DNA from: Naegleria gruberi
Lineage: Eukaryota
Direction: 5' to 3' (one strand)
DNA length: 64,000 nt
Assembly (NCBI GenBank): GCA_000004985.1
Contig: GG738853.1
Position 1 is the first letter of the stretch. Each line of letters begins with the position of its first letter. Below are positions 1 to 32,311 of this stretch, piece after piece. Both the position numbers and the translations under genes were made by a program. The notes under the pieces are model-generated. The model was given only the letters and a program-made list of their open reading frames with translations. It made no database searches and was not told where the DNA came from.

Positions 1-30
1 CAAGGATAATCCAAAGCATCACACACATAC

Positions 31-265
31 TTGGTACATTCAAAACAAGAGGCCACAGCAAAGGTAGCATTAGGAATATTACTACACATGGTATCGGAGC
101 AACACTGACAAGTACAAAATGTTGTCTTGTGTCTATCCTTTGGATCCAAATCAATATTAGATGGTTCTTCCCTTCCTTCAACAAGACCAATAGAAAGAAT
201 CAATGCATAGGAGATGAGCAATGCTGTAATCACCAGCAAAAAACATGATGATCGAATATTTTTCA
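31..265 (-). CDS. Partial first exon of a minus-strand gene (signal/TM segment then Cys-rich region); the gene continues beyond the window start
   Basis: The reverse complement of 1..265 begins ATG at 263-265 with an A-rich context. It reads MKNIRSSCFLLVITALLISYALILSIGLVEG...CTCQCCSDTMCSNIP...CFECTK and is followed by a GTATGT donor (complement of about 25-30). Signal-anchor-like hydrophobic N-terminus. Confidence 0.3.
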
Positions 266-694
266 TGGGCAGCAGATTTAATGCCATTTTTTAAATTGGA
301 GTTTCAAAGCTCCTGCCAACTATTAAATTAGCTCCATGACTTTAATTGTTATGTGGATTGCCTTACATAAAATTCCAATAAAATCCGAAGATGACCTACT
401 AGTAGTGATTAGTGTCATTCAAAGGTCTTTCTTCATTAATAATGAAAGAATGGTTCACAGAAGTGTTTTCAAGACAATTTGAAACCAATGACTTAAGTAC
501 AAACAACATGGCTCCTTTTGCAACCAATGATACAATTCAATTTATTTGTGAATCATATACGTTTGCATCTGATCAAGCAATCTTGAAATTGTGTTTTCAA
601 CAAACACAAAACCAGAATTTTTGTTTTTTCAATTTTAAAAATAAATTTAAAGGCCAAATCTGCTCGGTCTTGCTAAAACACAAACACAAAACAA

Positions 695-2272
695 ATGAGT
701 CAACAAGGATTACCTACCAGATCAAAGAGAATTCGTAACGATAAAGAAGAAAAAGCCGTTGATCAAAGTGACGAAAATGATGCTCAAGAGGAGAAAGATG
801 TTACACTACTGGATCGAGAGGAGAAAGAAGGTCTATTTGAAACGGTTGGAGGTTTAGCCATTGAAAAATTGGAAGAGAAGGATTGCAACATTCAATCACA
901 TTTTTCAATGTCAAACGACACAGGATCAGTTGTGGTCATCGATCAGGGATCTTCCTTTTCGAAAGGAATGATATTTACCAAAGATTCTAATGGAAAATTC
1001 AAAGAAGAATCGATCAGATTTAATGTTACTCCAAGAGCGATAGCTTCAGAGTTTGCACGAACCATTCTATATTACACACCATCAACTGATGAATATTTCC
1101 TATATAAGAACCCAAACTCTGATTCCATTCCTATCCATTCCCTCAAGAAACTTTTCACTGTATTGGAAGCCAATACCTACATTGTAAAGGATGAAAATGG
1201 CACTAGTTTTCCATTGAATGTATCCCTTTTAATGTTTAAATTCATTGAGAAGCTTCTCAGTGCAATTACATGGAGGAAGAAACAAACGAAATTCACCAGA
1301 AAAGTTGATACCTTCATTTTTACAGTTCCTACTGGTACACCACAACATGTGAAAGCTCTCTACAAATTGAACATTTTCAAAGCTATTCAGAAATGTTTTG
1401 AACATGGTTCAGCATTAAGGTTGAACAATATTTACGTCATTGAAGAGTATTTGCTATTGTACTATGCTAATATCAATGAGCAGTCAACAGATCAGATCCT
1501 TATGATTATTGATTTTGGTCACTTGACTGCAGATGTCACGGTAATTGACAAACTCCAAACTATTATTTATGCCAATGGTGAAGTTGGAGGTGTTTCAATG
1601 TTTCATAAAGTCATTGAAGAACTCACAAATGAAAATCCATTTGACGTCATGAGAAATATATTCGAAAGTCAAGATTCTGTCCTTCCAGAGAAGTACCAAT
1701 GGTTAGACAAGCCTTTCAGAGAGGTATGCAAAGAGATAATCCAACCAATTTTGGATGCCATTCTTCAAACTAACCCAGAACAGGTAGTTCTCTGTGGAGC
1801 TTTCATTTCGAATGGGTATTTTAAGGAACTTGTTAAAAGTATGCTAAACTTTGACAAATTGCAACAATACTATGATGGCAATGACTTCATTAGAAAGGAC
1901 GAATTCAAACCTCAACACTTTGAAATTGTTGAAATTGAAAACCCAGGAAGTGCCTTACTTGTTGGGGCTGCAAACATGTTACAGAGCAATGCACAGAATA
2001 TTTCATTTTCCAATGGTTTACCTGCTATTGTCAATATTCCAATAGATTTTGAAAGAAAATTACTTCCTTTTCAAACAAAAATTGCCTTCTTGTTTGAAGA
2101 TGAATATACCAATCAAGTCATGCTCAAATTGACTAAGAATGATAATTTCCTTTATGTTAAACAAGATGTTGAAATTTTCATTCTCAAAATTAGAAATACC
2201 ATTGATATGGAAAAGTTAGAAAACACCAATATCACCATGGATAACATAACAGATTGGCGTCTCAGAATTTGA
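695..2272 (+). CDS. Divergent Hsp70/actin-fold ATPase-like protein (NBD-only, 525 aa)
   Basis: Single ORF with an A-rich start context. Motifs resemble Hsp70 phosphate-1 (VVVIDQGSSFSKG), phosphate-2/connect (IIDFGHLTADVTVID) and adenosine (VVLCGAFISNGYFKELV). No substrate-binding domain is present. Confidence 0.5.
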   Translation: MSQQGLPTRSKRIRNDKEEKAVDQSDENDAQEEKDVTLLDREEKEGLFETVGGLAIEKLEEKDCNIQSHFSMSNDTGSVVVIDQGSSFSKGMIFTKDSNGKFKEESIRFNVTPRAIASEFARTILYYTPSTDEYFLYKNPNSDSIPIHSLKKLFTVLEANTYIVKDENGTSFPLNVSLLMFKFIEKLLSAITWRKKQTKFTRKVDTFIFTVPTGTPQHVKALYKLNIFKAIQKCFEHGSALRLNNIYVIEEYLLLYYANINEQSTDQILMIIDFGHLTADVTVIDKLQTIIYANGEVGGVSMFHKVIEELTNENPFDVMRNIFESQDSVLPEKYQWLDKPFREVCKEIIQPILDAILQTNPEQVVLCGAFISNGYFKELVKSMLNFDKLQQYYDGNDFIRKDEFKPQHFEIVEIENPGSALLVGAANMLQSNAQNISFSNGLPAIVNIPIDFERKLLPFQTKIAFLFEDEYTNQVMLKLTKNDNFLYVKQDVEIFILKIRNTIDMEKLENTNITMDNITDWRLRI

Positions 2273-2306
2273 AAGATTCACAACTGCAAATATATGGTTT
2301 GATCCA

Positions 2307-2921
2307 ATGTTAAAACTTCATCATGCAGCTTTTTTCATTGTTGGTGAGGTTCTCCAAGATCATGTTTTTGTTTCTATTATTTTCAAATCAGTTGGTCACT
2401 ACATTAGAAAGAGATTCAAAATTCCAAGAATTGGAAGAATGGAAAGAATTCCAATAACTGATGTTCTTGAAATTTTCACCACAGAAGAAGAAGAGGATAC
2501 CACTTGGTACGGAACCAAATATGATTTAAATATGGTTGTCACTGATTCTCGTGTTCACAGAGTTGATAAAAGTCAACTTTCAGAATTGGATGAAAACGAT
2601 TTCAAAATATTACTTTCTAAAGAAAATGTAATAACCAAAGAAGATCGTACTGAATATATTGAGAATTATGAGAGTAACATTCCAGCTCAAGAGAAAGGCG
2701 ATGCGAACAAGTACTGTGAACAGGTCAACTTTAAATGTATCTGTTGTGGAAAGGCCATTCAGAATGGCGATCAGAAACACAAATTTACCAGTCGTACTGT
2801 TTACCGTTTTAGAGAAGCATTTGGTGATAACAATATTCATCCTGGTTCTAGTTGTCATGACTGTTTCAAAATTCAAAGAAATTATTTCGACAGGAAAAGA
2901 GGTTCAAAGAAGAGAAAATAA
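2307..2921 (+). CDS. Hypothetical 204-aa protein with a C-terminal Cys/His cluster (possible zinc ribbon) and a basic tail
   Basis: ORF starts ATG at 2307. C-terminus reads CEQVNFKCICCGK...HPGSSCHDCF...RKRGSKKRK. No GT-AG join to the upstream gene is evident. Confidence 0.35.
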   Translation: MLKLHHAAFFIVGEVLQDHVFVSIIFKSVGHYIRKRFKIPRIGRMERIPITDVLEIFTTEEEEDTTWYGTKYDLNMVVTDSRVHRVDKSQLSELDENDFKILLSKENVITKEDRTEYIENYESNIPAQEKGDANKYCEQVNFKCICCGKAIQNGDQKHKFTSRTVYRFREAFGDNNIHPGSSCHDCFKIQRNYFDRKRGSKKRK

Positions 2922-3328
2922 TTCAAATTTCTCTAACATAACAATGATATTTATTCTATATTTCATTCTTGTTTCCAATAGAGAATCTTTCACTTTGACA
3001 CTGGTTTCAAATGGACTTTCTTCATCAAATTTATTTTGAGTTGACAAGATATTGTACATTATCTACAATATTGTACAGATGGAGTTTGAAGAATGAGTAG
3101 CATACTGCATTGAACAATACGATAGAAATTTTGTTGACGTCATTTGTAGCTGTTGAAGGAATTTGTTTTCCATGTTCTCTCAACAGGGTTCACCTCAATG
3201 GAAGAATGAACTTCAATTTATTTTCGAAATTTGAATAAAAATGAAGCTGAAATAATAATGAATTCAACAACAAAAACAAACGAACTAATTAACTTGTATA
3301 TAAACAAGACAAAACAATTGTTTGAAAA

Positions 3329-4477
3329 ATGTCATTCCTTAGATCATTCTTCACAAAGAAAACTGAAAAGAAAGTTGAAAGCGGTGGCTATGATGATTAT
3401 TCAGCAGACGAATCCTATGGAACTAGTTATTCTAGTAGTAGTGGTGGAAAAATTATTAAAGCAGACCATAAATCACAAGCAGGATATGATCAAGAACTAA
3501 TTGACCATAGTGAAAATATTGTTGATTTGGTTATTGTAATGGATTGTACTGGATCAATGTCAGGTGAAATTGATGCTGCCAAGAAAACAGTGCAAACAAT
3601 TTTGTCTAGCTTGAAAGATCACTTTAAAACAGATTTGAGATTCTCTGCCATTAGTTACAGAGACCACTCTGATGATTATGCAGTGAGAGAATTCCCATTT
3701 ACTAAAGACATTCAGAAAGCTAAAAGTTATATTGACACCATGTCAGCTCAAGGTGGAGGTGACCATCCAGAAGCTTTGGCATCTGCGCTCAAGGTTGTCA
3801 ATGAAATGCCATTCAATAAGAAGGGTAAAAAGATTTGTATTTGGATTGCAGATGCTCCACCTCATGGAATGAATTCCAATCAAGGTGCTGATAGCTATCC
3901 AGAAGGTTGTAAAGATGAAAATGGAAAGGTCATCGATTGGGTTAGATTGGGATCTGATTTACAAGAAAAGAATGTTTGCTTTTATTCATTGATTTGTGAA
4001 AGAGCTCAAGGAGATCAACAATTAGCTCTATTCATGGATTTCTTAGCAACCAAAACAGATGGTAAATGCATGTTATTGAAGAATGCTAACAAACTTCCTA
4101 ACTTGATTATCAATGGTTCAATTGAAAATGATGAAATGGATCAATTGGTTGCCAAGAAAATTGCAGAACTAGGTGAAGAAACTGTCAAACATATGAAAGA
4201 AGAAGAACTTGTTGAAAAGATTCAACAACTTTCCAAAGATGCCAAAATTAATCAAGTTCAAACATTTGAAATTTGTTCGACCAATACCAAGGAATTATTG
4301 AATTGTGATTCACTTTCAAAGGTCAACAAGGCATGGCTCAATACTGGTACTAATAATATTTCAATGAAAGGAGCTGAATCGGAGGAATGTTTCGAATATG
4401 CTTCTCAATGTTATACTGCTCCAAAATTGGAACACTACTCAAAAGCTTGTTCAAGAGCCATGAAATCCAAAAGATAA
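3329..4477 (+). CDS. von Willebrand factor A (vWA) domain protein, 382 aa
   Basis: aaaaATG start. vWA MIDAS-type start DLVIVMDCTGSMSGEI and the typical beta-alpha alternation. Ser/Gly-rich N-terminus. Confidence 0.6.
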   Translation: MSFLRSFFTKKTEKKVESGGYDDYSADESYGTSYSSSSGGKIIKADHKSQAGYDQELIDHSENIVDLVIVMDCTGSMSGEIDAAKKTVQTILSSLKDHFKTDLRFSAISYRDHSDDYAVREFPFTKDIQKAKSYIDTMSAQGGGDHPEALASALKVVNEMPFNKKGKKICIWIADAPPHGMNSNQGADSYPEGCKDENGKVIDWVRLGSDLQEKNVCFYSLICERAQGDQQLALFMDFLATKTDGKCMLLKNANKLPNLIINGSIENDEMDQLVAKKIAELGEETVKHMKEEELVEKIQQLSKDAKINQVQTFEICSTNTKELLNCDSLSKVNKAWLNTGTNNISMKGAESEECFEYASQCYTAPKLEHYSKACSRAMKSKR

Positions 4478-10537: not shown

Positions 10538-13500
10538 ATGTATAATAGCAATACAACAAATGTTAGACCGATATCTAGCAGTATGGGTCCACCTCCCTTG
10601 AGTGCAAATAGTGCATCAAGAAGAACGATAGCTGCTACAACAGGTCCACCTCCTTTTAATCCTAATAATCGAGTTCCTACTGCTGTAGTAACAACACCAA
10701 TGCCGATGGTTAACGGTGGACAACCTCCTAATCCTTTCTTCAGACCTCCATATCCAAACAATCCACCAATACCTAATGGTATGATTCCGAATAATATGGG
10801 TGGATATATGCCACAACCAATGTGGTCACCAAACGTCCCTGTAACAAGTCCTAGTATGAGAAATCAACCACCTGTACAAAATAATTTTATGCCTGTTAAC
10901 AATAATAATACTTCAATGACACTATCTACTCCAAGTTCATCTGCATCAAGAAATAGAAGTGTATCAATTGGATCAGCACCTGTTCCAACTGGTGATCCGA
11001 ATGAAGCAAAATTATTTGATGAATTACTCACTACTTTCTATAGTGATCCAGTAAGAATTGATGAAATTTCTAGGATGGATTTATTTTGCATTAGAAGTGC
11101 TTTACCAAAAACAACTTTTGAAGAAATAGATATTTTCTCGAGCTATTTTGGACATGGATCTAGTGTGGATGCTTCTTCATTTGGAGCTAATTTATTATTG
11201 AATGATGATAATAATAATAATAACAATACAACACTTGACTATAATAATGGACAAAACTCTGTAATTTCCTCCTTACGACACGCAATTAGAAAATTATATT
11301 TGGAAGCTTTTCGTGATGATGACAAATTTTCTGCCTCTCTTCTTTCCTATCATTTACTTTTATATAAGAGATTGAAAATTTTGGAAAAGGTTCAGGAGTT
11401 TCAACATGGTAAAATGAATTCTACACAATCACTGAAAGTTCAATTTGAACAACTTCCTTCCAATAATGCTCTAAGTATTGCTGTTGATCATAATATTGAC
11501 AAACCAAGTACTTCTGTAATAGCTACATGTGCTCTTTCGAGTGTTCCTGTTAACACAACTGAAATGACCCAAGTTGCTGAGCATCAATATCAACCTCTTA
11601 AAAGGGAAGATTTGGATACTTTTACAAAGAATTTAATCAAAGCAATGCAAAAGAGCGATGTGAAAAAAGGTATTTTTGCCAAACTGAGGAAGTCGAAATC
11701 AGAATCAATTTACAAAATTATTACAAAGTATGCATATCCACTATGCTTACCACTGGAAATTTTAGATATTGAATCACTAAATCCAGTCAAACAATATTTG
11801 GTAGAATATTCATTGGATAAGGAAAATGGTTTGAAACGTAGAACAAAATCAATTCACTCCATGTTGCTTTTGGCTTTGAGTACTGGCTCTTTATTAGACA
11901 TGCTCCAAGTGTTACAATGCCTTCTTTCACTTTCCGAGAATCCTGACGATCCTCTCATTGATGCAGAGACTGAAGACGAAGGAAGCTTTGTAATGCGTGC
12001 CGAAACTCTAAAGCCACTACAACAATTCCAATATTTGATTAAGATGCATTTGGATCAATTAGAAAAGGACTCGAGTCATACACCTGGGAAAAACAATGAC
12101 TTACCTACGTATCTATTACCTCAACATATTTGGAACGACCCTAACTATTCTTTAATATCCTTCTCATCAAATGGTGTATCATTGAACTTTAATTGGAAGA
12201 AACCTTACCTGACCGCAAAGCGACTTTTCCTTTTTTTGCTTAACCAAATAGACATGTTAGCGACCCATTACTTGTACTGTGAATCATATAGCACAATTAA
12301 TTCTCAGGGAGATCTAGTCATAGAGCTGGGAGATTCAAAGAATATTAACTCACTTCTCAATCATAGAGAGAAGTTTTTGAAAAATAAGATTAGTGCAAAT
12401 ATCAAATTTTCTATCGAGTTGGGATCACCGAGAACCTTTTCGTCATTACTAGATATCATTGATAGCATGTTACAAATTCAAAATACCTCTAACAGTGAGC
12501 TTAATGGAGTTAAAAACTATTCCATTGCGGCACTTTTCAGAATATTGCACTTGAATGTGAAAGCATTGAGTTTGTGGAAAAAAGGAAGAGAGAACGTTAA
12601 TCAACTTGTGCAGCATCGTATGTCTAGCAGTACAGGTTATTCTAATGTAAATTTCATCGAGTCTATGAAGGGCTATTTCCTTGGGTTCCTCAAAGAAATT
12701 GACACTGATTTGGAAACTAATCAAGATGGACTCAAAAGTTTTGAAACCATCCACGAGGCCAAACCTAGTTCTCAATCAAGGTCAAAAGATCCAAACATCA
12801 AGGAACAACCAAAGAATCAACAAAAAACAACACAAGACCAAAAGAAGGATGTTACAACTAATCCTTTTATTCTGAACTTGTTCGGATCTACAGCAAAAGA
12901 GCCTGTTCAAGAAGAACAACAAACCAATTTTGACATCGAAGAGAATGACGATTTTGTTGTAATTTCAACAACACCTGGTCATCCAAATAATAGGGAACAA
13001 CCACCAACACCGGAGGAAGTTAAAAATGTTTCAAAGTATAGATCAATACTGGCAGCCTTGGCACCTCAAACTTTCATGTCTAAATTTATTTCTGAAAAGA
13101 TGTTGGACATACTAGTTACTGGATTTTCTATTTTCTACCCATCTCCCGAAGAGCAAAGATTTTTCTTAGAAGATTCAATAAGTATATTATCGAATGGTGG
13201 AAAATCGAACAGCACAAGCTTACTCTCTTCTTCTACAGAAGTTCCTTTAAGAAGAAACTTTTTAAAGAAGTTATTAGAACGATTGGTTAATGATTTTACT
13301 CTATTTGAAAAGTTGATTGCTAATGGTATTGGCATGTCTGATGTGAGTGTGGTGATCCCATTCACAGAAAAATTATTAGAATTTATCAAACGTCAAGAAC
13401 AATTCAAAATGGCAGAAGTTTTATCTAAACTCTCCAAGTTTACACCAGAAAAAGATATCAAACCAAATGATATTTACATGCATGAGGATTTGGAAATTAT

Positions 13501-16500
13501 TGCAAATCTTGTCAAACAACTGATGATAATGTGGCAAAACTTTTTATTCCATTATGTTCACTCAATTTTTAGTAAGAGTTCTGTTTCAAACAACAATGGT
13601 GTTGTAAATTCAATCTTGGGAACAAACACTGGAAAAGTCCTGTTTGAATACTCTAGACTTATTCTTAATCAAAGTGAAGAAGTTTTAAATGAAATGTGTA
13701 AAATCTCAGCTGAAATTATTGAAGTGAAATCAAAAGTTGACAAATCATCTGTTGATGAAGTTAATTCCCTATTAACGATTGGAATTTGTGAAGGTATTCT
13801 GCAAAAAGGCGCCACAGGGTGGTTATGTTTCCCTCTCTTGCTTAACTTTGCTAAATTCTTGTGGAAGGGTAGTATTCTTAGTAATTCTAAATCTGCAGCT
13901 GGAAATGTTGTTATAGAATCTCAATTAGAAAAGTTAACTCAATTTTTATATCCTCCTGTGGTTAATCTCTTGAGAATGATAGATTTGCTTTGTCAATTCT
14001 GTGATGTTCAAGAATTCAAATCTGAGGCCGAAAGGTTATTAATTGACTGGACTATTGTAGAAACTGAACATCCATATGATGGTAATGTTACTGATTGGAA
14101 AGAAGTTAATTTTATAGATCCTAACAATAACATTATCAATGTGGGTATCAAATTTGATCCTAGATGTATTACCTCTGGTCCTGAAGATCACCTTAGAATT
14201 AACTCTTTACAAAAAATTGCCAATCTTCAAGCTTTACAATTCTCAGGACATGGAACAACAATTCCAGTTAATCCTTTATTAACATGGGGAGCTGGCATGT
14301 CTTGCAGTTTCAAGAGCGGTAATTTTGCTCTTAATTCAAGTGAAGGAGGAAAACAAGGAAGCATGTGGGGAATGAGATGTCTTGTAGTACCAGTTAGAAG
14401 TTTCTCTGCACCTCCATTGTTTATGTACGAATTTTCTAAGTTATTAGGTCACATTGGTGGAAGATGCAGTACTTATTTGCTTTCAACCTATCCATACAGT
14501 AGTGATGAAGACAAGTACGTAGAATGGTTGGAAAGCAAGATATTTGCCAATGGAATCAAAGGAGAAATTGGACAACCTACAGAGCAAAACACAGAAAAAC
14601 AATCAAATAACAATAATAATGGTCTTTTGCTTCTAAGAATGGAGGAAGACTTCTCCAAGAATTCAATGATGTACCAACAAGCAAAGACAATAGCACCAGG
14701 CAAATTCGGTTCAAATCCATATGATCTCATCGAAAAAGTTGACGTAGATAGCTCTTCGAGTGACGTATTAGATGTTGCTGACAAATTCTTATTGGAAATG
14801 ATCGAACCAACATCAAATACCTCTGCTCCAATCAACTATTGCAATTACATGTATCAAAGAATTCTCAACAAGGAATCATTTACACAAATGATGCAACAAG
14901 TACCTGATGTTGTCTCTGCTGAAAGAGCAGTTATTGCAGCAGTTTTAAAGCATACAGGTTTGGACTCTCTAGCAAGAAAAGTTTCAGATGCTGTTGCTGA
15001 AAGCCCATTCCTTCTTTCTGAGAATGTTGATAAGGATTCATACGAAAAATCCATGTCCCTCTTGGATATTATGTTCAAGAATGGAGATTATGAAAAGTTG
15101 AAATTAATGTGGAGAAAAGTTGGAAGAACTCTAAGAGAGTGGATGATCAAAACCAAACAACAAAAGCAACTGTCTTACCGTGATATGAGAGACTTTATTG
15201 TTCAAAAGTGCAAATTCTTGATTTCTCTTGAGAGTGCATTTATGAGTACGGTCCCATTAGATGCCAGGGATATTGGTACTACAGAGAAGTCTTCTTTATT
15301 CAAGAAAGTACAAAGTCCAAGAGCTGTGGAGAAATCTTCATTATTTTCTCAACAACTTACACATAATTTTGTATTCAATCGTTTTAAGAAAGGAAATATT
15401 GGCGGTTTTACAAATATACTACCAAGTGATGATTTTGTTGGAGATATTTCTTCACAGATTGTCAAATTCATTCAAAGTGATATCATACCAGTAAGAATTC
15501 AAAACTTGATGAGAATGAGAAGTGAAAGAGCATTGAATAGAGCAACATCTCTTCAAATGTTTAGTGAACTTTTGCAAAGCACTCAATTTGCTAGTGTTAA
15601 AGCTGAAATTGTTCATGGTATTAAAGCTGTTAGACAAAACAGATCCATGAAGAAGATAGACTCACCAAACTTCCACTACTTCAACAATGTAGAGGGAAGT
15701 GGCCCAATGTATTCAGATATTTTGAGCTCAAGTCTTAGCGATTTCTTAAAGCAATTGTTCTACCCTCTGGATTCTTGCATTTCTACATCTTCACAAGAAG
15801 AAAAGGAAAAGCAACTAAGAGTCTTGGTTCAAAGTGGCTTGTTAAGAGAAATATTAGATATTTGCTTGATATCTTTCAAGCACAATGATATCAAATGGAT
15901 TATGCAATTTGATTTCTTAGAAAAGCTCTCCTACCTGATGTATAATACCATCTCAACTCCTGAACAGAACACTGATAAATTTAAAAGAAGGGATGGATTC
16001 ACAGAGGAACAGAAAGAAATCAATAAGAAATCTTGGAAGATATTCAGACTTTTATCTATCAGATGTGTGGAAATGTTGGAAGAAAATGCAATCACTGATC
16101 CAGTTGTAGAATCTCAGCTGAATGATTTGAGAGATACTGTCTTTAACTTGTTGTTCAAGGATTTGAAGAGAGTAATCGGCGATATGAATTCTGAAATTTC
16201 TTCAGAAGTTTTAGAAGAAATGCTTTCTCTCATGGTTTCTCTTTCTAACACACCATCAGCACAATCTTGTTTATCAAGCGAAAGATTCCAACAATTATTA
16301 TTACCACTGTTGAGATTAGAAAGCTATCCAAAGGTTCAAGAGTTATCGCTCAAATTATGTGGACAACTTATCACAAGCTATGGAGAGCTTTCTACTGATA
16401 ATAACTATAGTGAAGGTTTGAAAGAATTACTAACAATATTATTCGAGTTCTTGGGAGCCTATGAGACTAAACAAGTAACTGGCGACGCTTCTCTTGTCAA

Positions 16501-19500
16501 TGACAAAGATGGTAGTGGTTCTATTGGTATGAAAATGGCCAAAGATATCTTCAACTTGATAAGAAAATTATTCAGGGATATACCTGTTGATGATCATTCA
16601 TCTGCACCTTACTTTGTAGGAGTACTTACTTCATTAATGGATCAAGCTATTAATCTCTCAACACAAAATATAATACAGAGTATCAGGAAGGGAAAAACCT
16701 CTGTTTTGAAGGATATTCAATTGGTTTACTCCACTTTGACAGTCCTTAACGGATTTAATTGTGTTCCCCAAATTGGAGAAATTGTTAATGTAGATATGAA
16801 TGGCAGAGTTGAAAAAGCTAAAGTTAAAGAAATTGAGGAAACCTATCACTTGATCAAAATTGAACTATGTGACAAGACAGTCATTCACAGAGAACACTTT
16901 GTCTCTGCTGAGAATGTTAAGGTTGAAACCAACCAACCAATTGAAAAGTTTGACTTACAAAAGCAACATGTACACTCCTTATTCAAATTTATAACTGAGT
17001 TGGGAGTTATGGTGAATGGTACTGATTTAAGTTTAGATGACAAGATTCTATACTCTAATTTGTGGATGAGATCATTACGTTGGTTATTGGATGCTATTTC
17101 CATTCAAAATAACTATTCAACTATTGTTACAGAAACTTTACTTGGTGCCGATTCTGATTATGCTAATATGCTTGAAAAACTTGTTGGCCTTGGAGAAAAA
17201 TCAACTATTTACCAAACACTTGCTAATGAAACAAACAAGTCACTCATAACCTATGGTAAAGATCTTAAATTGGATTCTTGCAGTTTTACATTTACAGGAA
17301 AGAAATTCCACAAACAATACTACTATAGTTGCCAAACTTGCAGTATGAACACTAACCAAGCTGTTTGTGCATTCTGTGCCAGAACTTGCCATAGAGGACA
17401 TCGCTTGGGTACTTTGGAAGTTGGTGATTTCTATTGTGATTGCGGAGCTGGAGAAGCTGCAGCAAAGACACACGGAACATCTAATTGTAAGAGTTTAAGA
17501 AATGCATCCCCAGATCCAATTCTTACAACCGAAAGAATGGAAAGTGTAATGCTTCGTTTACAAAAATTAATGCCAATATCTTCCAAACGAAATCAAGCAG
17601 ATACACTTGATTTGGTACCGAACAGTCCAAATAGTAGTACTGCTTCACAAAACAATCAACCAGTTCAAAAAGGACCTTCCAAATTTGTGGTAACCAACAC
17701 TCTTGTACAAGATGGGGTACCATACACAATTAATAATGCTCCAGGAGAACTTCCACTCATCACTTTCAATCCAATGCGTTTGTACTCTCCAAAGCATTCT
17801 ATAATTGCTACAGACTTTTCAGTTCCAATGAGCTGGCCTGGTTTTTACTTTGAAGTAGAACTTGTGGATTGTGGAGAAAGTTTTGCAATTGGTTTTTCAT
17901 TACCATTTAATCCAACTAGTGCCATTACCTACAAGACAATCTTCTCTCAAACACAAAATATGTACACATGGCATACAGAAGCTGGTACTTTATACAAAGG
18001 AAATACTATTGTTAAAAACTCTTATCCAACTGCTTCAACAAAGGATGTCATTGGTTGTGGATTTATTAGAGAACAAAAAACTATTTTCTTTACTAAGAAT
18101 GGTGTAAATTTAGGACCTTCTTTCCAAAATGTTGATTTAATAACACTCAGTCCAATTATTGCTATGAAGGGAAAGAACGTACAAGCAAGAGTTAATGTTT
18201 CTATGATTAAGCCATTCCAATTTAACTTGCCAAGAAATTTCAAGTTGCTTGTTCCTGTATATTATGCTATTAACAATCCTACATCAGAAATTGTAGAAAC
18301 CAATCAACCACTGGGTAAGCCTTCTCAACCAGTTGTTCAAAATGAACTATCTGTCTTTGAAACCAGAGTCAAAGAATTGAAATCAGTTGTTAATGGACTT
18401 TACACTGAAGATGATATCAGAAGAGTGTTAACCTCTCTCAATAATATGGAAGGAAGTAATTTGAACATTCTTAACTTTGCTTTATCCATTTTACACAGAA
18501 ATATGCAACCTCAAGTTCAAGTCATTTCTAAAACAAATGCACCAACACAACCAGAGGCTGTTCCTGTTCTAAGATTACAATTGGTAGAACAAATGAAGTT
18601 GATGGGCTTTACTAATGATAAGGTTTGCTTGAAAGCTCTTCAACTTGCCAATGACGATATTAACTTGGCTTTGAACTATGTTTTCGAAGGTGTTGTTGTT
18701 GAAGATACACCTCCACTTATTCCTAATATGGCTTCTAGCAGCAGTATTAGCATTCCTTCTTCTATTGCTCCTCCTGCCAATCCTTTTGTTGATAGAGAAG
18801 AATTCATAAAGAAGAATGAAAAGAGTGTAAATGACATTTTACTCTTTGAAAATTCTGGTGTACCATTGCTTGGATCAGAATGTAACAACTCTGATATGAA
18901 ACAAAGATTATTGAAAGCTATGCTTCAAAACCCAGACATGAAAATTAACGAAAATAACTTTTGTGATTCTAATAATTTGAGAGAGGGCGATTTGGTTGTT
19001 GTTTCACCAAGAATTGTTGCTGTTGCTGATAATAACAGTGATTCTGGATATGATCTTTCTAGAAATAAGAAGACTGCTGCCCTGTCTAAACTTCGTGGTA
19101 AACTTGGCGTTGTATCTCGTAAGGTAACCTATGGCCCATACGTTATGGTAGCAGAGGAACAAGGTGCTGGATCTATTGTTACAGATTTGGTTGAATCCAA
19201 GAATGTCTACACAGCTCCACACGAGCTCAAAGGAATTACCATCAATGATGTTCCTGCAAAATGTTTAGAATTCTATATGGCTTTATCATCAACCTATATC
19301 AGAACAACAATTTTGAAAGCTTTGATAAAGGCATCAGAGATGAAAAATTTCAAAATGGATCTACCAAAGACCTTTTCAACAAAGAAGAATCTCATGAAAG
19401 GATTGAAGCTAACTTTGATAGATTCCTATCACCACTTGGATACCGATTATAACTTTATTTCTTCATATACCAATAATGTTATTCTTGAAAAGTCCGTAGA

Positions 19501-22500
19501 CTATGATAATAATTATACATTTGCCAATAAGACATTACCTGCTATAGAACATTTTGAATCTTGGAAGAATATGGAAATTACTAATTCTGAAAACAAAGCT
19601 TCTGACATTTTCTTGGAAATTGAAGAAGAAGCACTCAATGATCTAAATGCTTATACTCTTGGACTTAATAACTATAGAAAATATGATTATAGAAAAGATA
19701 TGAATGTATTGCACCAACAACCTACACCTTACAAGCAACATTTTATTCAATTTTATGGTGCCACTTCTATTGCTATTATTTTGGGAGAAAAATTTGAATT
19801 ACCAACAACATTGGACTGTCTTACATTCTATTTTGATAGAAATGGTAAGAAAGTTGCATTGCAAATCAAGGGAGGTACTCCAGTTCAAGACAGATGTCTC
19901 ATCATCACAACAAATAATTACAATTATTTCAACCAAACAGAACCTTTTGCCAATCAAGCACAACTATACTTTGAATTTACTGGACCAAGCGTAAGAGAAA
20001 ACAATGGTGTTACCTTCTATGCAGCTCCTTACACTACAAAATTATCTCAAAGGGATGCCTTCCTTCAACCAAATATGCTCCTCTCTTCTTTAGTATTGAA
20101 GTACTCAGCCATCAGTAGAAAATCAAGAAAAGTTGATTTTACTGCAGCTCTTTACTTCCCAATCATGGGAAGATACCTGTTAACACCATTTGCTCCTTTC
20201 AAGGGTATTGTAGCTGATGCTCTTTGTCAATTAGACTATAGCAGTCCAGTTATTTTCAATTCTCACATAGATCCAATGTCTCACACTGGTATAAGGGATA
20301 GTATTGTTAAAAGTGGTCCAGCTTATGCTCACTTGTCATTATTGAAGAGGTTTAGAGTTGAATTGGAAGATTTATACAGAAAATATTTGAGATATAATGA
20401 AACTTCACCTCATGCCCTCCATAATTTCCACGCTCTGACTGAATTTATGACTGTCGTAAGAAAATACCTTGTTAGTGACTTGTGTCAATCCATGTTCCCA
20501 AGTGCCTCAAGCAGTTTATCTAATTTACCAACTAACCTTGCAAATATATTAGACAAACATCACATGTACAGTTGTAAGTTAGATCAACAACATTATGGAA
20601 GAACAGTTGAAAGAGAAACCCTGGCATGTACCAGTTGTACTCATAGTGTTGCTAAGCAGTTATCCATGTACGAAACAAAACCTTCCTCTTCTTTTGCCAA
20701 ATATTTTGCTAATGAATCCACCAAATGTCAATCCCAGGTTGCTATGGAGTTCCAAATCAAGTATGATCACGAAAACTCATGTAATGTAGCAACAAGTATT
20801 GTTCCAATAGGAACTACAAGTGAATCCGTTTCAAAACTTTTCTCTAAGGAAGATAACTTGTTACAAGTTAACCCATCAGATTGGTTTGAACATGTATCTT
20901 GGGTTGACCAACTCACAATTATTAGAGAATTTTTGGAAACATTCACATCTAATAATGGTAGAACCTTCCCAGAATGGACCTTGTTTGAATCGATTCTTGA
21001 GAAGAGAAAGAAGGTCTGTTACAAGGAAAGCAAACATCCATACTCTGTTGTTAATGACTCTGATAAGATTAAGATTCCTGGAGCCAAGACCCTCTACATT
21101 ACCTTTGATAAACACAGTAAGACTCACAAGTGTGATCGACTGCTCTTTAGTACTAAGAAGGCAGGCTCTGACGACTTGGGATCTTTCGGTGGAGATGAGT
21201 TGAAAGACAAAACTATTGTTGTACATGGTACAGACTCTGTTTACTATGATTTCACTTGTGGTGGAGGTGATCATGACGTTAAATGCTCTGGATGTAGATC
21301 TAATATTTCTGGAGTTCGTTATCACTGTGTCGAATGTGAGGAGTATGACCTTTGTGAAAAATGTGTTTCCAAGCAAGGAAGAGTTCACTCTGATTTGCAC
21401 TTGTTCCTTAAAATTAGAAGGCCAGTTGATTGTATGCCTGCTATGATTCCTTCACTTTATACTCCAAGATGGAGGTCTACCTCTCAATTCAAAGGAAATA
21501 TTCACGTTGGAGTTAAATGTGACAATTGTGGTGTAAATCCAATCAAGGGTATTCGTTATTGGTGTGAAAATTGTGAAAACTTCAACCTTTGTGAAAAGTG
21601 CGCTGACACTGAGTTCAAATACCATGATAGAATGCACATTTTCTTGCGTGTTGTTAGACCTTTACCACCAAAGAATCAAATGCCTGCCAATGCTCTTCCA
21701 TATGGTCTCGTTTATGAGAAAGATATGGATTCTCACTGGGGTTATATGTTTAGCGTTTCTTCCTCTATTGAAGCTTGCCCTAGAATATCACAAGTCCAAA
21801 ATGAGATTGATGAAATAAGATCTTTAATGAAGATTGGAAAGGATAATCAACCTATTGGGGAAGACGATGTAGATCCTGTCGAGTTTGACAAGCAACTACT
21901 CGAATATGTTGAAACATATAGCAACGGATGGCAATCATTAGAATGGAATCAACTCTCACCAAAGAAAGAAGAATTAACTAATTTACCGCTACTTGATAGA
22001 GTCCCTCTCAACAGACTTAGATATAGATTCGTTCTTCTCAAACTTTTCAACAGAAGAATTTCACGAGTTATCAATATTTTAGATTTTACAAATACTTCAA
22101 ATATTGAGAGAATGAATGACTCAAGAGCTGTAACTATTACAGACATGATTAGTCAACAATTGAGAGATAGAATTTTCTATTCTGTAAAGATGGATGCTTG
22201 GCAACATACTATCATGAAGTCTCATGTAACAGTTGATCCTATCCATTTGAAGCTCAATAGACATTTGGCCTCTGAAATGCACCCAACAGATAGACAAAGA
22301 AATGCCTTCAATTCTCTCTTTATTCAAGCTTTCAACCAAGTTAAATCTATGCATCCAAAGATTTTGAGCAGAAAACAAGCCTCATGGAAGGTAACATTGA
22401 TTGGCGAAGCAGCTGATGACTATGGTGGACCTTTCAGAGAGTCTTTATCAAACATGTGCCAAGAATTGATTGCTAATGATCCTTCTGTTTTGGATTTATT

Positions 22501-23479
22501 CATCCCAACTCCTAACAAGGTTTCTGGACAAGGTGATAACAGGGACAAGTTTGTTCCAACTCCAAAGAGCACAAGTGATCAACATCTCAAGTGGTATGAA
22601 TTTGTAGGAATGTTAATGGGTATTGGTATTCTTACGAAGAACGTTTTGCCATTCGATTATCCTTCCTTAATTTGGAAAAGTCTTGTTAATGAAAAGATTG
22701 GTTGGACTGATTTGAGATCCTTTGATGAAGAAATTTACAATGCCATGAAATCAATACTTGAACTTGGAGATGTAGACGATTCAGATTATGAATTGAAATC
22801 AATTATGGAAGACAGTTTCTCTCAGACCTACTATGGAAGAATGCTTACCACAATGGGAAGCGACGGCAAAGAAGTAGAGCTTGTACCAAATGGTACTAAT
22901 ATTGAACTTTCCTATAATAATAGAAAACAATATGCAAACTTGATCTATGATTACCGATTAACTAAAGAGTTTAATTCCCAATTGAATGCCATCAGAAAAG
23001 GACTGTTCAACATGCTCACTAACAGATACTTTAGTCTCTTCTCTTGGCATGAACTGGAAAGAAACGTGTGTGGTATTCCTGATGTAGATGTTGAAAAATT
23101 GAAGCAACACACAATTTATGAAGGATACACAATCCAAAGTAGAGAAATCAAGCACTTCTGGGAAATTATGCAAGCATTCAGTCCAGAACAGCGCTCACTT
23201 TTCCTCAAATTCGTCTGGGGTAGAGGTAGAATGCCTTACAATGAGAGTGAGGCCTTCTCCAATCCAATGAAGATTCAAAAACTTGATAGACCAAATCCTG
23301 ACATTGTCTTGCCACTTTCGCACACTTGTTTCTTCTCTATTGAGTTGCCATCCTACTCTACAAAGGAAATTATGAAAGAAAAACTCTTGTATGCCATCAT
23401 CAACTGTAAAGCTATTGATATTGATTTTACTACAAGCGCAATAGAAGCTCAGAATTATTCTATTGCTGTAAGAAGATAA
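10538..23479 (+). CDS. Giant single-exon HECT-type E3 ubiquitin ligase (4313 aa) with UBR-box, SPRY/B30.2, UBA, two ZZ zinc fingers and a C-terminal HECT domain
   Basis: Uninterrupted 12.9-kb ORF. UBR-box CSFTFTGKKFHKQYYYSCQTCS...CAFCARTCHRGHRL...FYCDCG at about nt 17290. SPRY-like FYFEVELVDCGESFAIGFS...GCGFIREQKTIFFTKNG. UBA LVEQMKLMGFTNDKVCLKALQLANDDINLALNYVFEG. ZZ fingers CSGCRSNISGVRYHCVECEEYDLCEKCV and CDNCGVNPIKGIRYWCENCENFNLCEKCA. HECT motifs GEAADDYGGPFRE...LPLSHTCFFSIELPSYSTKEIMKEKLLYAI with catalytic Cys. Confidence 0.85.
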   Translation: MYNSNTTNVRPISSSMGPPPLSANSASRRTIAATTGPPPFNPNNRVPTAVVTTPMPMVNGGQPPNPFFRPPYPNNPPIPNGMIPNNMGGYMPQPMWSPNVPVTSPSMRNQPPVQNNFMPVNNNNTSMTLSTPSSSASRNRSVSIGSAPVPTGDPNEAKLFDELLTTFYSDPVRIDEISRMDLFCIRSALPKTTFEEIDIFSSYFGHGSSVDASSFGANLLLNDDNNNNNNTTLDYNNGQNSVISSLRHAIRKLYLEAFRDDDKFSASLLSYHLLLYKRLKILEKVQEFQHGKMNSTQSLKVQFEQLPSNNALSIAVDHNIDKPSTSVIATCALSSVPVNTTEMTQVAEHQYQPLKREDLDTFTKNLIKAMQKSDVKKGIFAKLRKSKSESIYKIITKYAYPLCLPLEILDIESLNPVKQYLVEYSLDKENGLKRRTKSIHSMLLLALSTGSLLDMLQVLQCLLSLSENPDDPLIDAETEDEGSFVMRAETLKPLQQFQYLIKMHLDQLEKDSSHTPGKNNDLPTYLLPQHIWNDPNYSLISFSSNGVSLNFNWKKPYLTAKRLFLFLLNQIDMLATHYLYCESYSTINSQGDLVIELGDSKNINSLLNHREKFLKNKISANIKFSIELGSPRTFSSLLDIIDSMLQIQNTSNSELNGVKNYSIAALFRILHLNVKALSLWKKGRENVNQLVQHRMSSSTGYSNVNFIESMKGYFLGFLKEIDTDLETNQDGLKSFETIHEAKPSSQSRSKDPNIKEQPKNQQKTTQDQKKDVTTNPFILNLFGSTAKEPVQEEQQTNFDIEENDDFVVISTTPGHPNNREQPPTPEEVKNVSKYRSILAALAPQTFMSKFISEKMLDILVTGFSIFYPSPEEQRFFLEDSISILSNGGKSNSTSLLSSSTEVPLRRNFLKKLLERLVNDFTLFEKLIANGIGMSDVSVVIPFTEKLLEFIKRQEQFKMAEVLSKLSKFTPEKDIKPNDIYMHEDLEIIANLVKQLMIMWQNFLFHYVHSIFSKSSVSNNNGVVNSILGTNTGKVLFEYSRLILNQSEEVLNEMCKISAEIIEVKSKVDKSSVDEVNSLLTIGICEGILQKGATGWLCFPLLLNFAKFLWKGSILSNSKSAAGNVVIESQLEKLTQFLYPPVVNLLRMIDLLCQFCDVQEFKSEAERLLIDWTIVETEHPYDGNVTDWKEVNFIDPNNNIINVGIKFDPRCITSGPEDHLRINSLQKIANLQALQFSGHGTTIPVNPLLTWGAGMSCSFKSGNFALNSSEGGKQGSMWGMRCLVVPVRSFSAPPLFMYEFSKLLGHIGGRCSTYLLSTYPYSSDEDKYVEWLESKIFANGIKGEIGQPTEQNTEKQSNNNNNGLLLLRMEEDFSKNSMMYQQAKTIAPGKFGSNPYDLIEKVDVDSSSSDVLDVADKFLLEMIEPTSNTSAPINYCNYMYQRILNKESFTQMMQQVPDVVSAERAVIAAVLKHTGLDSLARKVSDAVAESPFLLSENVDKDSYEKSMSLLDIMFKNGDYEKLKLMWRKVGRTLREWMIKTKQQKQLSYRDMRDFIVQKCKFLISLESAFMSTVPLDARDIGTTEKSSLFKKVQSPRAVEKSSLFSQQLTHNFVFNRFKKGNIGGFTNILPSDDFVGDISSQIVKFIQSDIIPVRIQNLMRMRSERALNRATSLQMFSELLQSTQFASVKAEIVHGIKAVRQNRSMKKIDSPNFHYFNNVEGSGPMYSDILSSSLSDFLKQLFYPLDSCISTSSQEEKEKQLRVLVQSGLLREILDICLISFKHNDIKWIMQFDFLEKLSYLMYNTISTPEQNTDKFKRRDGFTEEQKEINKKSWKIFRLLSIRCVEMLEENAITDPVVESQLNDLRDTVFNLLFKDLKRVIGDMNSEISSEVLEEMLSLMVSLSNTPSAQSCLSSERFQQLLLPLLRLESYPKVQELSLKLCGQLITSYGELSTDNNYSEGLKELLTILFEFLGAYETKQVTGDASLVNDKDGSGSIGMKMAKDIFNLIRKLFRDIPVDDHSSAPYFVGVLTSLMDQAINLSTQNIIQSIRKGKTSVLKDIQLVYSTLTVLNGFNCVPQIGEIVNVDMNGRVEKAKVKEIEETYHLIKIELCDKTVIHREHFVSAENVKVETNQPIEKFDLQKQHVHSLFKFITELGVMVNGTDLSLDDKILYSNLWMRSLRWLLDAISIQNNYSTIVTETLLGADSDYANMLEKLVGLGEKSTIYQTLANETNKSLITYGKDLKLDSCSFTFTGKKFHKQYYYSCQTCSMNTNQAVCAFCARTCHRGHRLGTLEVGDFYCDCGAGEAAAKTHGTSNCKSLRNASPDPILTTERMESVMLRLQKLMPISSKRNQADTLDLVPNSPNSSTASQNNQPVQKGPSKFVVTNTLVQDGVPYTINNAPGELPLITFNPMRLYSPKHSIIATDFSVPMSWPGFYFEVELVDCGESFAIGFSLPFNPTSAITYKTIFSQTQNMYTWHTEAGTLYKGNTIVKNSYPTASTKDVIGCGFIREQKTIFFTKNGVNLGPSFQNVDLITLSPIIAMKGKNVQARVNVSMIKPFQFNLPRNFKLLVPVYYAINNPTSEIVETNQPLGKPSQPVVQNELSVFETRVKELKSVVNGLYTEDDIRRVLTSLNNMEGSNLNILNFALSILHRNMQPQVQVISKTNAPTQPEAVPVLRLQLVEQMKLMGFTNDKVCLKALQLANDDINLALNYVFEGVVVEDTPPLIPNMASSSSISIPSSIAPPANPFVDREEFIKKNEKSVNDILLFENSGVPLLGSECNNSDMKQRLLKAMLQNPDMKINENNFCDSNNLREGDLVVVSPRIVAVADNNSDSGYDLSRNKKTAALSKLRGKLGVVSRKVTYGPYVMVAEEQGAGSIVTDLVESKNVYTAPHELKGITINDVPAKCLEFYMALSSTYIRTTILKALIKASEMKNFKMDLPKTFSTKKNLMKGLKLTLIDSYHHLDTDYNFISSYTNNVILEKSVDYDNNYTFANKTLPAIEHFESWKNMEITNSENKASDIFLEIEEEALNDLNAYTLGLNNYRKYDYRKDMNVLHQQPTPYKQHFIQFYGATSIAIILGEKFELPTTLDCLTFYFDRNGKKVALQIKGGTPVQDRCLIITTNNYNYFNQTEPFANQAQLYFEFTGPSVRENNGVTFYAAPYTTKLSQRDAFLQPNMLLSSLVLKYSAISRKSRKVDFTAALYFPIMGRYLLTPFAPFKGIVADALCQLDYSSPVIFNSHIDPMSHTGIRDSIVKSGPAYAHLSLLKRFRVELEDLYRKYLRYNETSPHALHNFHALTEFMTVVRKYLVSDLCQSMFPSASSSLSNLPTNLANILDKHHMYSCKLDQQHYGRTVERETLACTSCTHSVAKQLSMYETKPSSSFAKYFANESTKCQSQVAMEFQIKYDHENSCNVATSIVPIGTTSESVSKLFSKEDNLLQVNPSDWFEHVSWVDQLTIIREFLETFTSNNGRTFPEWTLFESILEKRKKVCYKESKHPYSVVNDSDKIKIPGAKTLYITFDKHSKTHKCDRLLFSTKKAGSDDLGSFGGDELKDKTIVVHGTDSVYYDFTCGGGDHDVKCSGCRSNISGVRYHCVECEEYDLCEKCVSKQGRVHSDLHLFLKIRRPVDCMPAMIPSLYTPRWRSTSQFKGNIHVGVKCDNCGVNPIKGIRYWCENCENFNLCEKCADTEFKYHDRMHIFLRVVRPLPPKNQMPANALPYGLVYEKDMDSHWGYMFSVSSSIEACPRISQVQNEIDEIRSLMKIGKDNQPIGEDDVDPVEFDKQLLEYVETYSNGWQSLEWNQLSPKKEELTNLPLLDRVPLNRLRYRFVLLKLFNRRISRVINILDFTNTSNIERMNDSRAVTITDMISQQLRDRIFYSVKMDAWQHTIMKSHVTVDPIHLKLNRHLASEMHPTDRQRNAFNSLFIQAFNQVKSMHPKILSRKQASWKVTLIGEAADDYGGPFRESLSNMCQELIANDPSVLDLFIPTPNKVSGQGDNRDKFVPTPKSTSDQHLKWYEFVGMLMGIGILTKNVLPFDYPSLIWKSLVNEKIGWTDLRSFDEEIYNAMKSILELGDVDDSDYELKSIMEDSFSQTYYGRMLTTMGSDGKEVELVPNGTNIELSYNNRKQYANLIYDYRLTKEFNSQLNAIRKGLFNMLTNRYFSLFSWHELERNVCGIPDVDVEKLKQHTIYEGYTIQSREIKHFWEIMQAFSPEQRSLFLKFVWGRGRMPYNESEAFSNPMKIQKLDRPNPDIVLPLSHTCFFSIELPSYSTKEIMKEKLLYAIINCKAIDIDFTTSAIEAQNYSIAVRR

Positions 23480-30682: not shown

Positions 30683-32311
30683 ATGATGAAAAAGGCCATC
30701 AAACAATTTTCCTGTAATATTCATAACAATAACAACAACAAAACTAGAAAGGAAGCACTCTCCATCCTCTCTAGAAAACACAATTATTTAAATAATAATC
30801 AACAAAGAAATACATCTTTCGGACAAGAACAAATTAAATGTTTTTCATCAAGCCTTTTATCTTTAACATCATCTAATAGTAATACAACAACATCAACAAC
30901 AGCAACAACTCAAGCAAGTTCTAAATTTCCAACTCGTCCAGTTCCTGCCGTATCTGTTACTCTATTAAAATTAATAACAAGAGGTTCCGAAGTGGATGGA
31001 TTTAAAGTTTTAATGATTAGGAGAGGAAAGGCTCCTGGAAAGGATTTGTTGGCTCTTCCTGGTGGACATTTAAATCTCGGAGAACGAATGATTGAAGGAG
31101 CAAAGAGAGAATTGCAAGAGGAGACTGGAATTAATGCTGATTTAATTCATTTCACTAATGCTCCACTCTTAACTGTTGAATCAATTTATTATCATCAGGA
31201 GGGAGATGATGGGAATGAGACAACTTCTCACAATGAAGAGGAGGATATTAGAACTATGAAGATTTCAACAAAATCGAATGAAATTAATTTTAGAAAGGAA
31301 CTTGGTGAGGAGTTGACTAGAAGAAAGAGAGAAGGAGATGATTCTATTCAAATTCAATATCATTTCATTATTTCAAGTGTTTTGGGTATTGTTCCACCAG
31401 AATTAAATCATCAAATTGAAGGAGAACCTTCAGATGATGCTTCACAAATTCAATGGATTAAAATTATGAAAAATGGAAAGAGTAGAAATTCTGTGGAATT
31501 GGATGAAGAGGGATGTATTACTACTCACATGAGTGAATGGATGGATGAAAGAAATCATAGAGGATTGTGTGAAAAGTTAAAGACTATTTACACTATGCCA
31601 ATTGTTGTACGTCATGCTATTATGAGACTCATTTCTTGTTATCCAGAAATTCAATCGCAAGCTCTTGTTACACCAACAGATTTATCCCTCTTGTATCAAT
31701 TGAATGACATGATGGTATTCTATCCAATAAGAGATAAGGTTTTGGAATTTTGGTTCCAAGGTGACATGGCTCCTCAACAATGGTGGTTCAAGTCAAGTCC
31801 AACCATTGATCAAGGTATTAAGAAATTATTCGAATCTCATGTTGCTGCTCTTTCCAATAAGCTTGAACTTCTCTTTGAAAAGTCATTCGAAGAAATTGAT
31901 GCAGTTTTGAAGAAGCAATCTAAGGAAACCTTGTTATCTGCCATGATCATGTTGGATCAATTCCCAAGAAATATGTACAGAAATAGTGCAAAGAGTTTTG
32001 CTTTTGATGATGTTGCTGTCAAGCTTTCATTATGGTGTATTGAAAACCAAATTGACCAACAATTTGAATTCCCATTACAAAAGATCTGGTTCTACTTCCC
32101 ATTAGAACACGCTGAAGATGCAGAATTACAAGACATGTCATGCGAACTTTTTGGTAAACTCGTTGAAGAACATGAAGCTATGGCTCTTTTCAATAAGTAT
32201 GCTATTAACCACAGAGAAGTCATTCAAAAGTTTGGAAGATTCCCATATAGAAATAAGGCCTTAGGAAGAGAAAGTACTCCAGAAGAAATTGAATATCTAG
32301 AAAGTCAATAA
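30683..32311 (+). CDS. Fusion protein: N-terminal Nudix hydrolase domain plus C-terminal DUF924-like domain (542 aa)
   Basis: aaaaaaaaaATG start. Nudix box GGHLNLGERMIEGAKRELQEETGI (GX5EX7REUXEEXGU). The C-terminal half (EFWFQGD...WWFKS...MIMLDQFPRNMYRNSAKSFAFD...QKIWFYFPLEHAED...FGRFPYRNKALGRESTPEE) has the W/F-rich signature of bacterial DUF924 proteins. Confidence 0.65.
   Translation: MMKKAIKQFSCNIHNNNNNKTRKEALSILSRKHNYLNNNQQRNTSFGQEQIKCFSSSLLSLTSSNSNTTTSTTATTQASSKFPTRPVPAVSVTLLKLITRGSEVDGFKVLMIRRGKAPGKDLLALPGGHLNLGERMIEGAKRELQEETGINADLIHFTNAPLLTVESIYYHQEGDDGNETTSHNEEEDIRTMKISTKSNEINFRKELGEELTRRKREGDDSIQIQYHFIISSVLGIVPPELNHQIEGEPSDDASQIQWIKIMKNGKSRNSVELDEEGCITTHMSEWMDERNHRGLCEKLKTIYTMPIVVRHAIMRLISCYPEIQSQALVTPTDLSLLYQLNDMMVFYPIRDKVLEFWFQGDMAPQQWWFKSSPTIDQGIKKLFESHVAALSNKLELLFEKSFEEIDAVLKKQSKETLLSAMIMLDQFPRNMYRNSAKSFAFDDVAVKLSLWCIENQIDQQFEFPLQKIWFYFPLEHAEDAELQDMSCELFGKLVEEHEAMALFNKYAINHREVIQKFGRFPYRNKALGRESTPEEIEYLESQ

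Follow-up and report, generated by a model that had tools for sequence, protein, structure and literature searches.

The 64,000-nucleotide stretch of Naegleria gruberi DNA analysed here (contig GG738853.1 of assembly GCA_000004985.1; hereafter the window) carries, at 10538..23479 on the plus strand, a single ATG-to-stop open reading frame (ORF) of 4313 amino acids (aa) plus stop. We propose that the encoded protein is a HECT E3 ubiquitin ligase whose substrates would be recruited by a UBR4-like reader of N-termini and by SPRY, UBA and ZZ modules, and that it belongs to a heterolobosean family; on the sequence comparisons below, we give this reading a probability of roughly 0.55. A Pfam scan of the whole protein, using the curated cut-off of each family, returned in order zf-UBR (aa 2248–2318; 33.8 bits, cut-off 25.2), SPRY (aa 2436–2552; 43.6 bits, cut-off 26.3), UBA (aa 2682–2714), two ZZ stretches (51.3 bits, cut-off 21.4; placed in this analysis at aa 3581–3629 and 3657–3708) and a C-terminal HECT domain (aa 3988–4291; 241.9 bits, cut-off 23.9). 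All exceeded their cut-offs except UBA, which was sub-threshold at 18.4 bits (E = 0.002, cut-off 22.4). The single ORF and the content and order of its domains, as given in a preliminary description made from the letters alone, were thereby confirmed.

HECT occupies the extreme C-terminus of the 4313-aa chain. The predicted catalytic cysteine, C4264 (codon 23327..23329, +), lies in an S-H-T-C-F-F-S motif 49 residues from the C-terminus and is invariant in orthologues. At E ≤ 0.001, 115 solved chains matched, and all 60 of the 60 listed are HECT ligases. In the single-sequence comparison with solved structures, HECTD3 ranked first (183 bits), followed by ITCH (131 bits), and UBR5 reached 98 bits; a family profile gave 286.7 for HECTD3, 210 for TOM1 and 144 for UBR5, placing UBR5 near the bottom of the ranking among solved HECT domains. 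The HECTD3 alignment starts at its residue 390, upstream of the catalytic domain, and the homology begins ~85 residues before the Pfam HECT boundary; the catalytic region including this pre-HECT extension spans 22247..23431 (+, aa 3904–4298). HECTD3, HERC1, HERC2 and KIAA0614 belong to HECT class I in the survey of Grau-Bove et al. 2013 (PMC3673628), which included N. gruberi in its taxon sample and reported SPRY as exclusive to class I HECTs. With a SPRY domain present, the protein is best read as a class-I-like HECT ligase, an assignment by score ranking against solved structures rather than by tree.

Orthologues were sought with aa 2200–3399 as query in an exhaustive HMMER search that covered 1.84 billion cluster representatives. 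Seven proteins fell below 1e-30, three of them giant: P0011 (3588 aa; Logan sample SRR34264949), P0013 (3014 aa; ERR14790941, one ORF on a gene-dense genomic contig) and P0023 (3503 aa; a complete ORF from a Pharyngomonas kirbyi transcriptome). In Pfam, all three share the order zf-UBR, SPRY, UBA, two ZZ, HECT. By BLASTP, P0011 aligns colinearly to aa 157–4296 at 33% identity, P0013 to aa 455–4309 and P0023 to aa 1144–4304. Querying with the ZZ-ZZ-HECT region brought in a partial C-terminal protein of Acrasis kona (P0004; 51% identity, 100% coverage) and metagenomic fragments. The HECT regions of P0011 and P0013 are 49–50% identical to that of Naegleria, about as near as Acrasis, and the organisms behind SRR34264949 and ERR14790941 are probably heteroloboseans too. 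By these alignments, the family is small, is conserved across Heterolobosea and covers Naegleria, Acrasis and the deep-branching Pharyngomonas. No other protein among the best 150 matches of the aa 2200–3399 search combined more than two of these modules, a word-indexed search with aa 2200–2761 gave one weak match, and one that used the aligned ZZ cassettes of the family gave short ZZ-only fragments and nothing else. Conservation in a four-way alignment peaks in the UBR box (57%), in aa 3451–3750 (41–65%) and in HECT. Both a central cassette (UBR4-type UBR box, SPRY and UBA) and a C-terminal cassette (a beta-rich unassigned module, two ZZ fingers and a motif following them) are conserved in all orthologues on a colinear scaffold.

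The UBR box (17279..17497, +, aa 2248–2320) is of the UBR4/BIG type. Among solved structures, it matches UBR4 at E = 3.8e-15 and nematode and plant UBR4/BIG at 1e-13 to 2e-12, followed by FBXO11 (2.8e-9), UBR5 (6e-5) and UBR1/2 (about 3e-3); in bits, UBR4 scores 59 and UBR5 26.6. The UBR4 and Naegleria boxes are about 50% identical over 61 residues, and the Cys and His zinc ligands are invariant in four orthologues. Work on UBR4 shows the α-amino group of the ligand to be held by D1715 together with the F1713 backbone; peptide binding is lost in F1671A and in F1713A, D1721 can be dispensed with, and the second-residue pocket owes its shape to K1708 (PMC10687169). The equivalents of D1715 (UBR2 D150) and F1713, D2301 and Y2299, are invariant in all four orthologues, and that of F1671, F2257, is aromatic in all four. 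The domain therefore carries the residues required of a UBR4-type N-terminus binder. The preliminary description had taken the UBR box to imply N-degron recognition coupled directly to a HECT module; such coupling is plausible given these conserved residues, and N-degron recognition itself is something we infer.

Between the UBR box and the ZZ fingers lie a SPRY domain (17843..18193, +, aa 2436–2552), whose nearest solved relatives are RanBP9 and RanBP10, and a UBA-like domain (18581..18688, +, aa 2682–2717). P0013 carries a UBA above threshold (40.6 bits) at the equivalent position, which supports the domain at the family level. ZZ finger 1 (21278..21424, +, aa 3581–3629) retains all eight zinc ligands, which are invariant, and those of ZZ finger 2 (21506..21661, +, aa 3657–3708) are likewise intact. 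The nearest solved ZZ to finger 2 is that of HERC2 (6.9e-11), and the tandem pair aligns to both ZZ fingers of Schizosaccharomyces pombe Nbr1.

Three further conserved segments accompany these domains. A family-conserved module with the pattern 'E-[ST]-x-H-P-Y ... F-D-x-x-x-x-T' occupies 14057..14395 (+, aa 1174–1286). A second, beginning 'E-S-x-H-P-Y' and continuing 'I-P-G-A..L.I.F-D-K-H-S.T', lies directly before ZZ1 at 21020..21277 (+, aa 3495–3580), with 41–54% three-way identity. The two resemble each other weakly (hhalign pairwise E = 0.0037, probability 8.9%), and neither matched any Pfam family even at E ≤ 10. They may be CUB-like modules of the sort that lies beside the tandem ZZ of ZZEF1, a kinship offered as a lead only. 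Directly after ZZ2, the motif 'LPPK..P.N.LPYGLVYEK...HWGY.F' (21662..21760, +, aa 3709–3741) matched no known family; it falls within aa 3701–3750, at 65% identity the most conserved non-catalytic stretch in the family, and its conservation equals that of the catalytic site. Upstream of the UBR box, an N-terminal scaffold of ~2100 aa (11006..17257, +, aa 157–2240) is colinear with the orthologues at 15–45% identity and matched no Pfam family. For the ~3,500 aa outside assigned domains as a whole, scanned as six segments, Pfam held nothing credible even at E ≤ 10.

In the mechanism we propose, ubiquitin would pass from an E2 to C4264 and from there to substrates held by the reader cassettes. 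The UBR box would bind the free N-terminus of a substrate in UBR4 fashion, with the aspartate holding the α-amino group and the two aromatic residues stacking on the first side chain, and SPRY and the ZZ fingers may contribute further peptide contacts. The UBA would bind ubiquitin, and for this reason the enzyme may extend chains on already ubiquitinated proteins. A comparable grouping is known from UBR4 complexes, which join a UBR box to a beta-sandwich and a ZZ finger, the ZZ being internal in plant BIG (PMC7618180).

Several observations weigh against this proposal. The Arg-selective aspartate is missing: A2304 stands at the sequence equivalent of D153 in UBR1/2, and A2307 at its structural equivalent, UBR4 D1721. 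UBR4 K1708 is replaced by E2294, and for that reason specificity is not transferable from UBR4. N-degron binding is absent from several UBR boxes (PMC4506424). In the ZZ finger of p62, which with PRT1 and KCMF1 counts among the ZZ-type N-degron readers, D129 and D149 bind the α-amino group and D147 the first peptide bond, and D129N cuts binding about 30-fold (PMC6098011). At the positions of D129, D147 and D149, ZZ1 has S/E/D and ZZ2 has D/N/N, so the full triad is present in neither; nor do orthologues restore it, the first position being N, S or E and the third position of ZZ2 being N. N-degron reading by the ZZ fingers is doubtful because this acidic triad is incomplete in both fingers and in the orthologues. 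In addition, the UBA of the Naegleria protein itself lies below the Pfam cut-off, the HECT class assignment rests on score ranking and not on a phylogeny, and AlphaFold2 with a five-sequence alignment gave unusable models for aa 3440–3790 (mean pLDDT 43.6) and aa 3790–4313 (mean pLDDT 45.0).

The absent Arg-selective aspartate also favours the chief alternative account, in which the protein is a real ligase whose UBR box is a general zinc module for protein-protein interaction, as in FBXO11, UBR3, UBR6 and UBR7. On this account it would serve in quality control or chain extension, with substrates chosen through SPRY, ZZ, UBA and scaffold. That FBXO11 is the second-closest solved UBR box, that many UBR-box proteins have no N-recognin function (PMC4506424), that a UBA is present, and that outside the UBR box conservation is highest in the ZZ cassette and the post-ZZ motif all fit such a ligase. 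We nevertheless regard it as rather unlikely: the two aromatics and the α-amino aspartate of UBR4 are kept in all four orthologues, and the UBR box is among the top non-catalytic conserved blocks outside the ZZ cassette.

The gene itself is well founded. Its product is identical, by exact-sequence comparison, to N. gruberi NEG-M XP_002680426.1 (EFC47682.1; UniProt D2V5N7), whose public name is "ubiquitin protein ligase" and nothing more specific and whose gene lies on a scaffold of 695 kb; the public gene model, also of 4313 aa, agrees with the ORF at 10538..23479. An amoebozoan origin, assumed in the preliminary description, was rejected on this identity, N. gruberi being a heterolobosean (Discoba). 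With 34.8% A and 31.8% T in the window, a random codon is a stop in 7.6% of cases, and the chance of 4313 consecutive stop-free codons is ~1e-148. We considered whether the ORF could be an annotation or assembly artefact, formed by fusion of neighbouring genes or read-through of a pseudogene. The low-complexity, unconserved first ~156 aa and the absence of a Pfam family over about 3,500 aa would be compatible with this. Against it stand the length of the stop-free frame and three independent orthologues that are colinear nearly end to end, among them the complete Pharyngomonas transcriptome ORF and the single ORF on a genomic contig. Because full-length orthologues are colinear and share its domain order, a gene fusion is excluded, and we rejected the artefact as exceedingly improbable. 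The ORF is a bona fide single-exon gene of N. gruberi. Its true start codon is uncertain within the Pro/Asn/Ser-rich N-terminal region (10538..11005, +, aa 1–156), as this part is not conserved among orthologues.

Neither the length of the gene nor its lack of introns is exceptional, although both had been thought unusual for what was taken to be an intron-rich genome. Taking ORF coverage as a stand-in for intron density, 35 stop-to-stop ORFs, each 150 codons or longer, span 76% of the window, and the neighbouring genes are long single ORFs (Dis3-like RNase, TPR, RpiB, WD40, NatB Mdm20 and NUDIX-DUF924). The locus is compact and poor in introns, so that an intronless gene of 12.9 kb is unremarkable here. 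For Naegleria, Fritz-Laylin 2010 reportedly gives ~0.7 introns per gene. A size of 4313 aa is likewise ordinary among giant HECT ligases, HUWE1 chains measuring 4374–4411 aa in the solved-structure search. Two GTG-started ORFs overlap the giant gene, one of 174 aa (20876–21400, −) and one of 127 aa (20820–21203, + in another frame); lying over its most conserved and GC-richest part, they are taken to be chance ORFs.

UBR5/EDD, of HECT class IV, is likewise a single-chain HECT ligase with a UBR box and a UBA, coupling an N-terminus reader to HECT; unlike the Naegleria protein, it carries beta-propeller inserts as well as an MLLE/PABC domain, and it lacks SPRY and ZZ. HERC2, too, is a giant HECT ligase and has a ZZ finger, but it contains three RCC1-like domains, Cyt-b5, MIB_HERC2, CPH and DOC, a UBR box and SPRY are absent from it, and its ZZ keeps an acidic equivalent of p62 D149 where Naegleria ZZ2 has Asn. 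One could regard the Naegleria protein as a divergent orthologue of either, its architecture being a lineage-specific elaboration: UBA, UBR box and HECT are shared with UBR5 and ZZ and HECT with HERC2, ZZ2 is nearest to the HERC2 ZZ, and HERC2 and HECTD3 are both class I HECTs (PMC3673628). The whole protein, however, showed no match at E ≤ 1 in Pfam to MLLE/PABP, RCC1, MIB_HERC2, Cyt-b5 or APC10, its domain order is unlike that of UBR5 and HERC2, and the full-length search against solved structures gave matches at individual domains only. UBR5 also ranks low among solved HECTs (98 and 144 bits against 183 and 287 for HECTD3) and its UBR box scores less than half as well as that of UBR4 (a ranking of scores, not a tree). 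On domain scores, absent marker domains and differing order, orthology to UBR5 or HERC2 was rejected as very improbable, in agreement with the preliminary description. Since the protein is nearer to HECTD3 and UBR4 than to UBR5, its UBR box and HECT appear to have been joined independently of UBR5.

UBR4–KCMF1–calmodulin and BIG offer the closest UBR box, with the N-terminus-binding residues kept, and a similar set of UBR box, beta-sandwich and ZZ on a giant scaffold, the ZZ of BIG lying in the same polypeptide. In UBR4, by contrast, catalysis is by a C-terminal hemi-RING/UZI module with an E2 instead of a HECT cysteine. Solved UBR4/BIG chains match the Naegleria protein at the UBR box alone, with no homology detected elsewhere; their giant Armadillo ring scaffold and hemi-RING/UZI module were not found, the C-terminus here being HECT. 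The ZZ fingers are nearer to those of HERC2, ZZZ3 and Nbr1 than to that of KCMF1. Among HECT ligases, HECTD3 scores best of the solved domains; class I, which comprises HERC1, HERC2, KIAA0614/HECTD4, HECTEx1 and others besides HECTD3, is the only class for which SPRY is reported, and ZZ occurs in HERC2; the protein differs in lacking the APC10/DOC of HECTD3 and HERC2, the RCC1 of HERC1/2 and the Laminin_G_3 of HECTEx1. HECTEx1, an excavate class I family, is marked by Laminin_G_3 plus SPRY, of which only SPRY is present here (no Laminin_G_3 in the whole protein at E ≤ 1). A Thecamonas trahens class I clade carries SPRY, ZZ and zf-UBR (PMC3673628). Given this clade and the conservation in other heteroloboseans, the architecture is not the one-off suggested by the preliminary description.

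A more specific form of the proposal is that the protein is a HECT-type N-recognin of Heterolobosea, lineage-restricted and independent of UBR5, in which one polypeptide unites a class-I-like HECT with a UBR box of UBR4 type and, possibly, with the tandem ZZ. In animals, such readers belong to the hemi-RING ligase UBR4 and its partner KCMF1. We advance this version tentatively, at somewhat below even odds. If it is true, the N-recognin would have a specificity of its own, without the Arg-selective aspartate and with Glu at the UBR4 K1708 position, and would also carry a duplicated conserved module and a motif after the ZZ fingers, both outside described families.

Additional observations concern the orthologue search and the rest of the window. 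The P0013 contig (L002, ERR14790941) is highly compact: the upstream gene stops 16 bp before the P0013 start, the next gene begins 5 bp past its stop, and a RING-finger protein is encoded upstream (noted regions 1–3000 and 12050–12418). P0012, a protein of 1423 aa from a 335 kb contig of an ENA metagenome, is a tandem array of 19 UBR boxes in which Pfam finds no further domain, and P0014 (993 aa) has 12; we know of no described protein with such arrays. P0035, P0137, P0085, P0152 and others are short proteins or fragments that pair a UBR4-like UBR box with SPRY or UBA, so UBR-SPRY and UBR-UBA neighbourhoods exist outside the giant HECT family. In P0001, a UBR box is combined with PB1.

Elsewhere in the window, the gene at 55830–58697 (+) specifies Mdm20 (PF09797, 227 bits), the auxiliary subunit of the N-terminal acetyltransferase NatB; its position 32 kb from the UBR-box ligase is probably a coincidence. 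At 59295–62203 (+) lies a class I myosin with a TH1 and SH3 tail, whose 823-aa ORF begins at position 244 of the motor profile. The ORF at 59295..59708 probably supplies part of the missing N-terminus through a short intron or a frame change near 59709–59731. At 30683–32311 (+), one ORF joins a NUDIX hydrolase domain and DUF924 in a single protein; Pfam lists DUF924 as a bacterial protein whose function is unknown.

A search of the available literature found no paper linking Naegleria to UBR boxes or N-degrons, or describing this ligase family. To our knowledge, no N-degron pathway has been characterised in Discoba. The protein thus belongs to a known enzyme class, of which it forms a variant not described before, and is not a new kind of system. 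Its two E-x-H-P-Y modules, post-ZZ motif and ~2100-aa scaffold are candidate new domain families. Should the UBR box not read N-termini, the family would be one more case of the documented domain shuffling among protist HECT ligases. If it does, N-degron recognition would have been fused to HECT catalysis a second time, independently of UBR5, and the family may provide a view into the N-degron pathway of Discoba.

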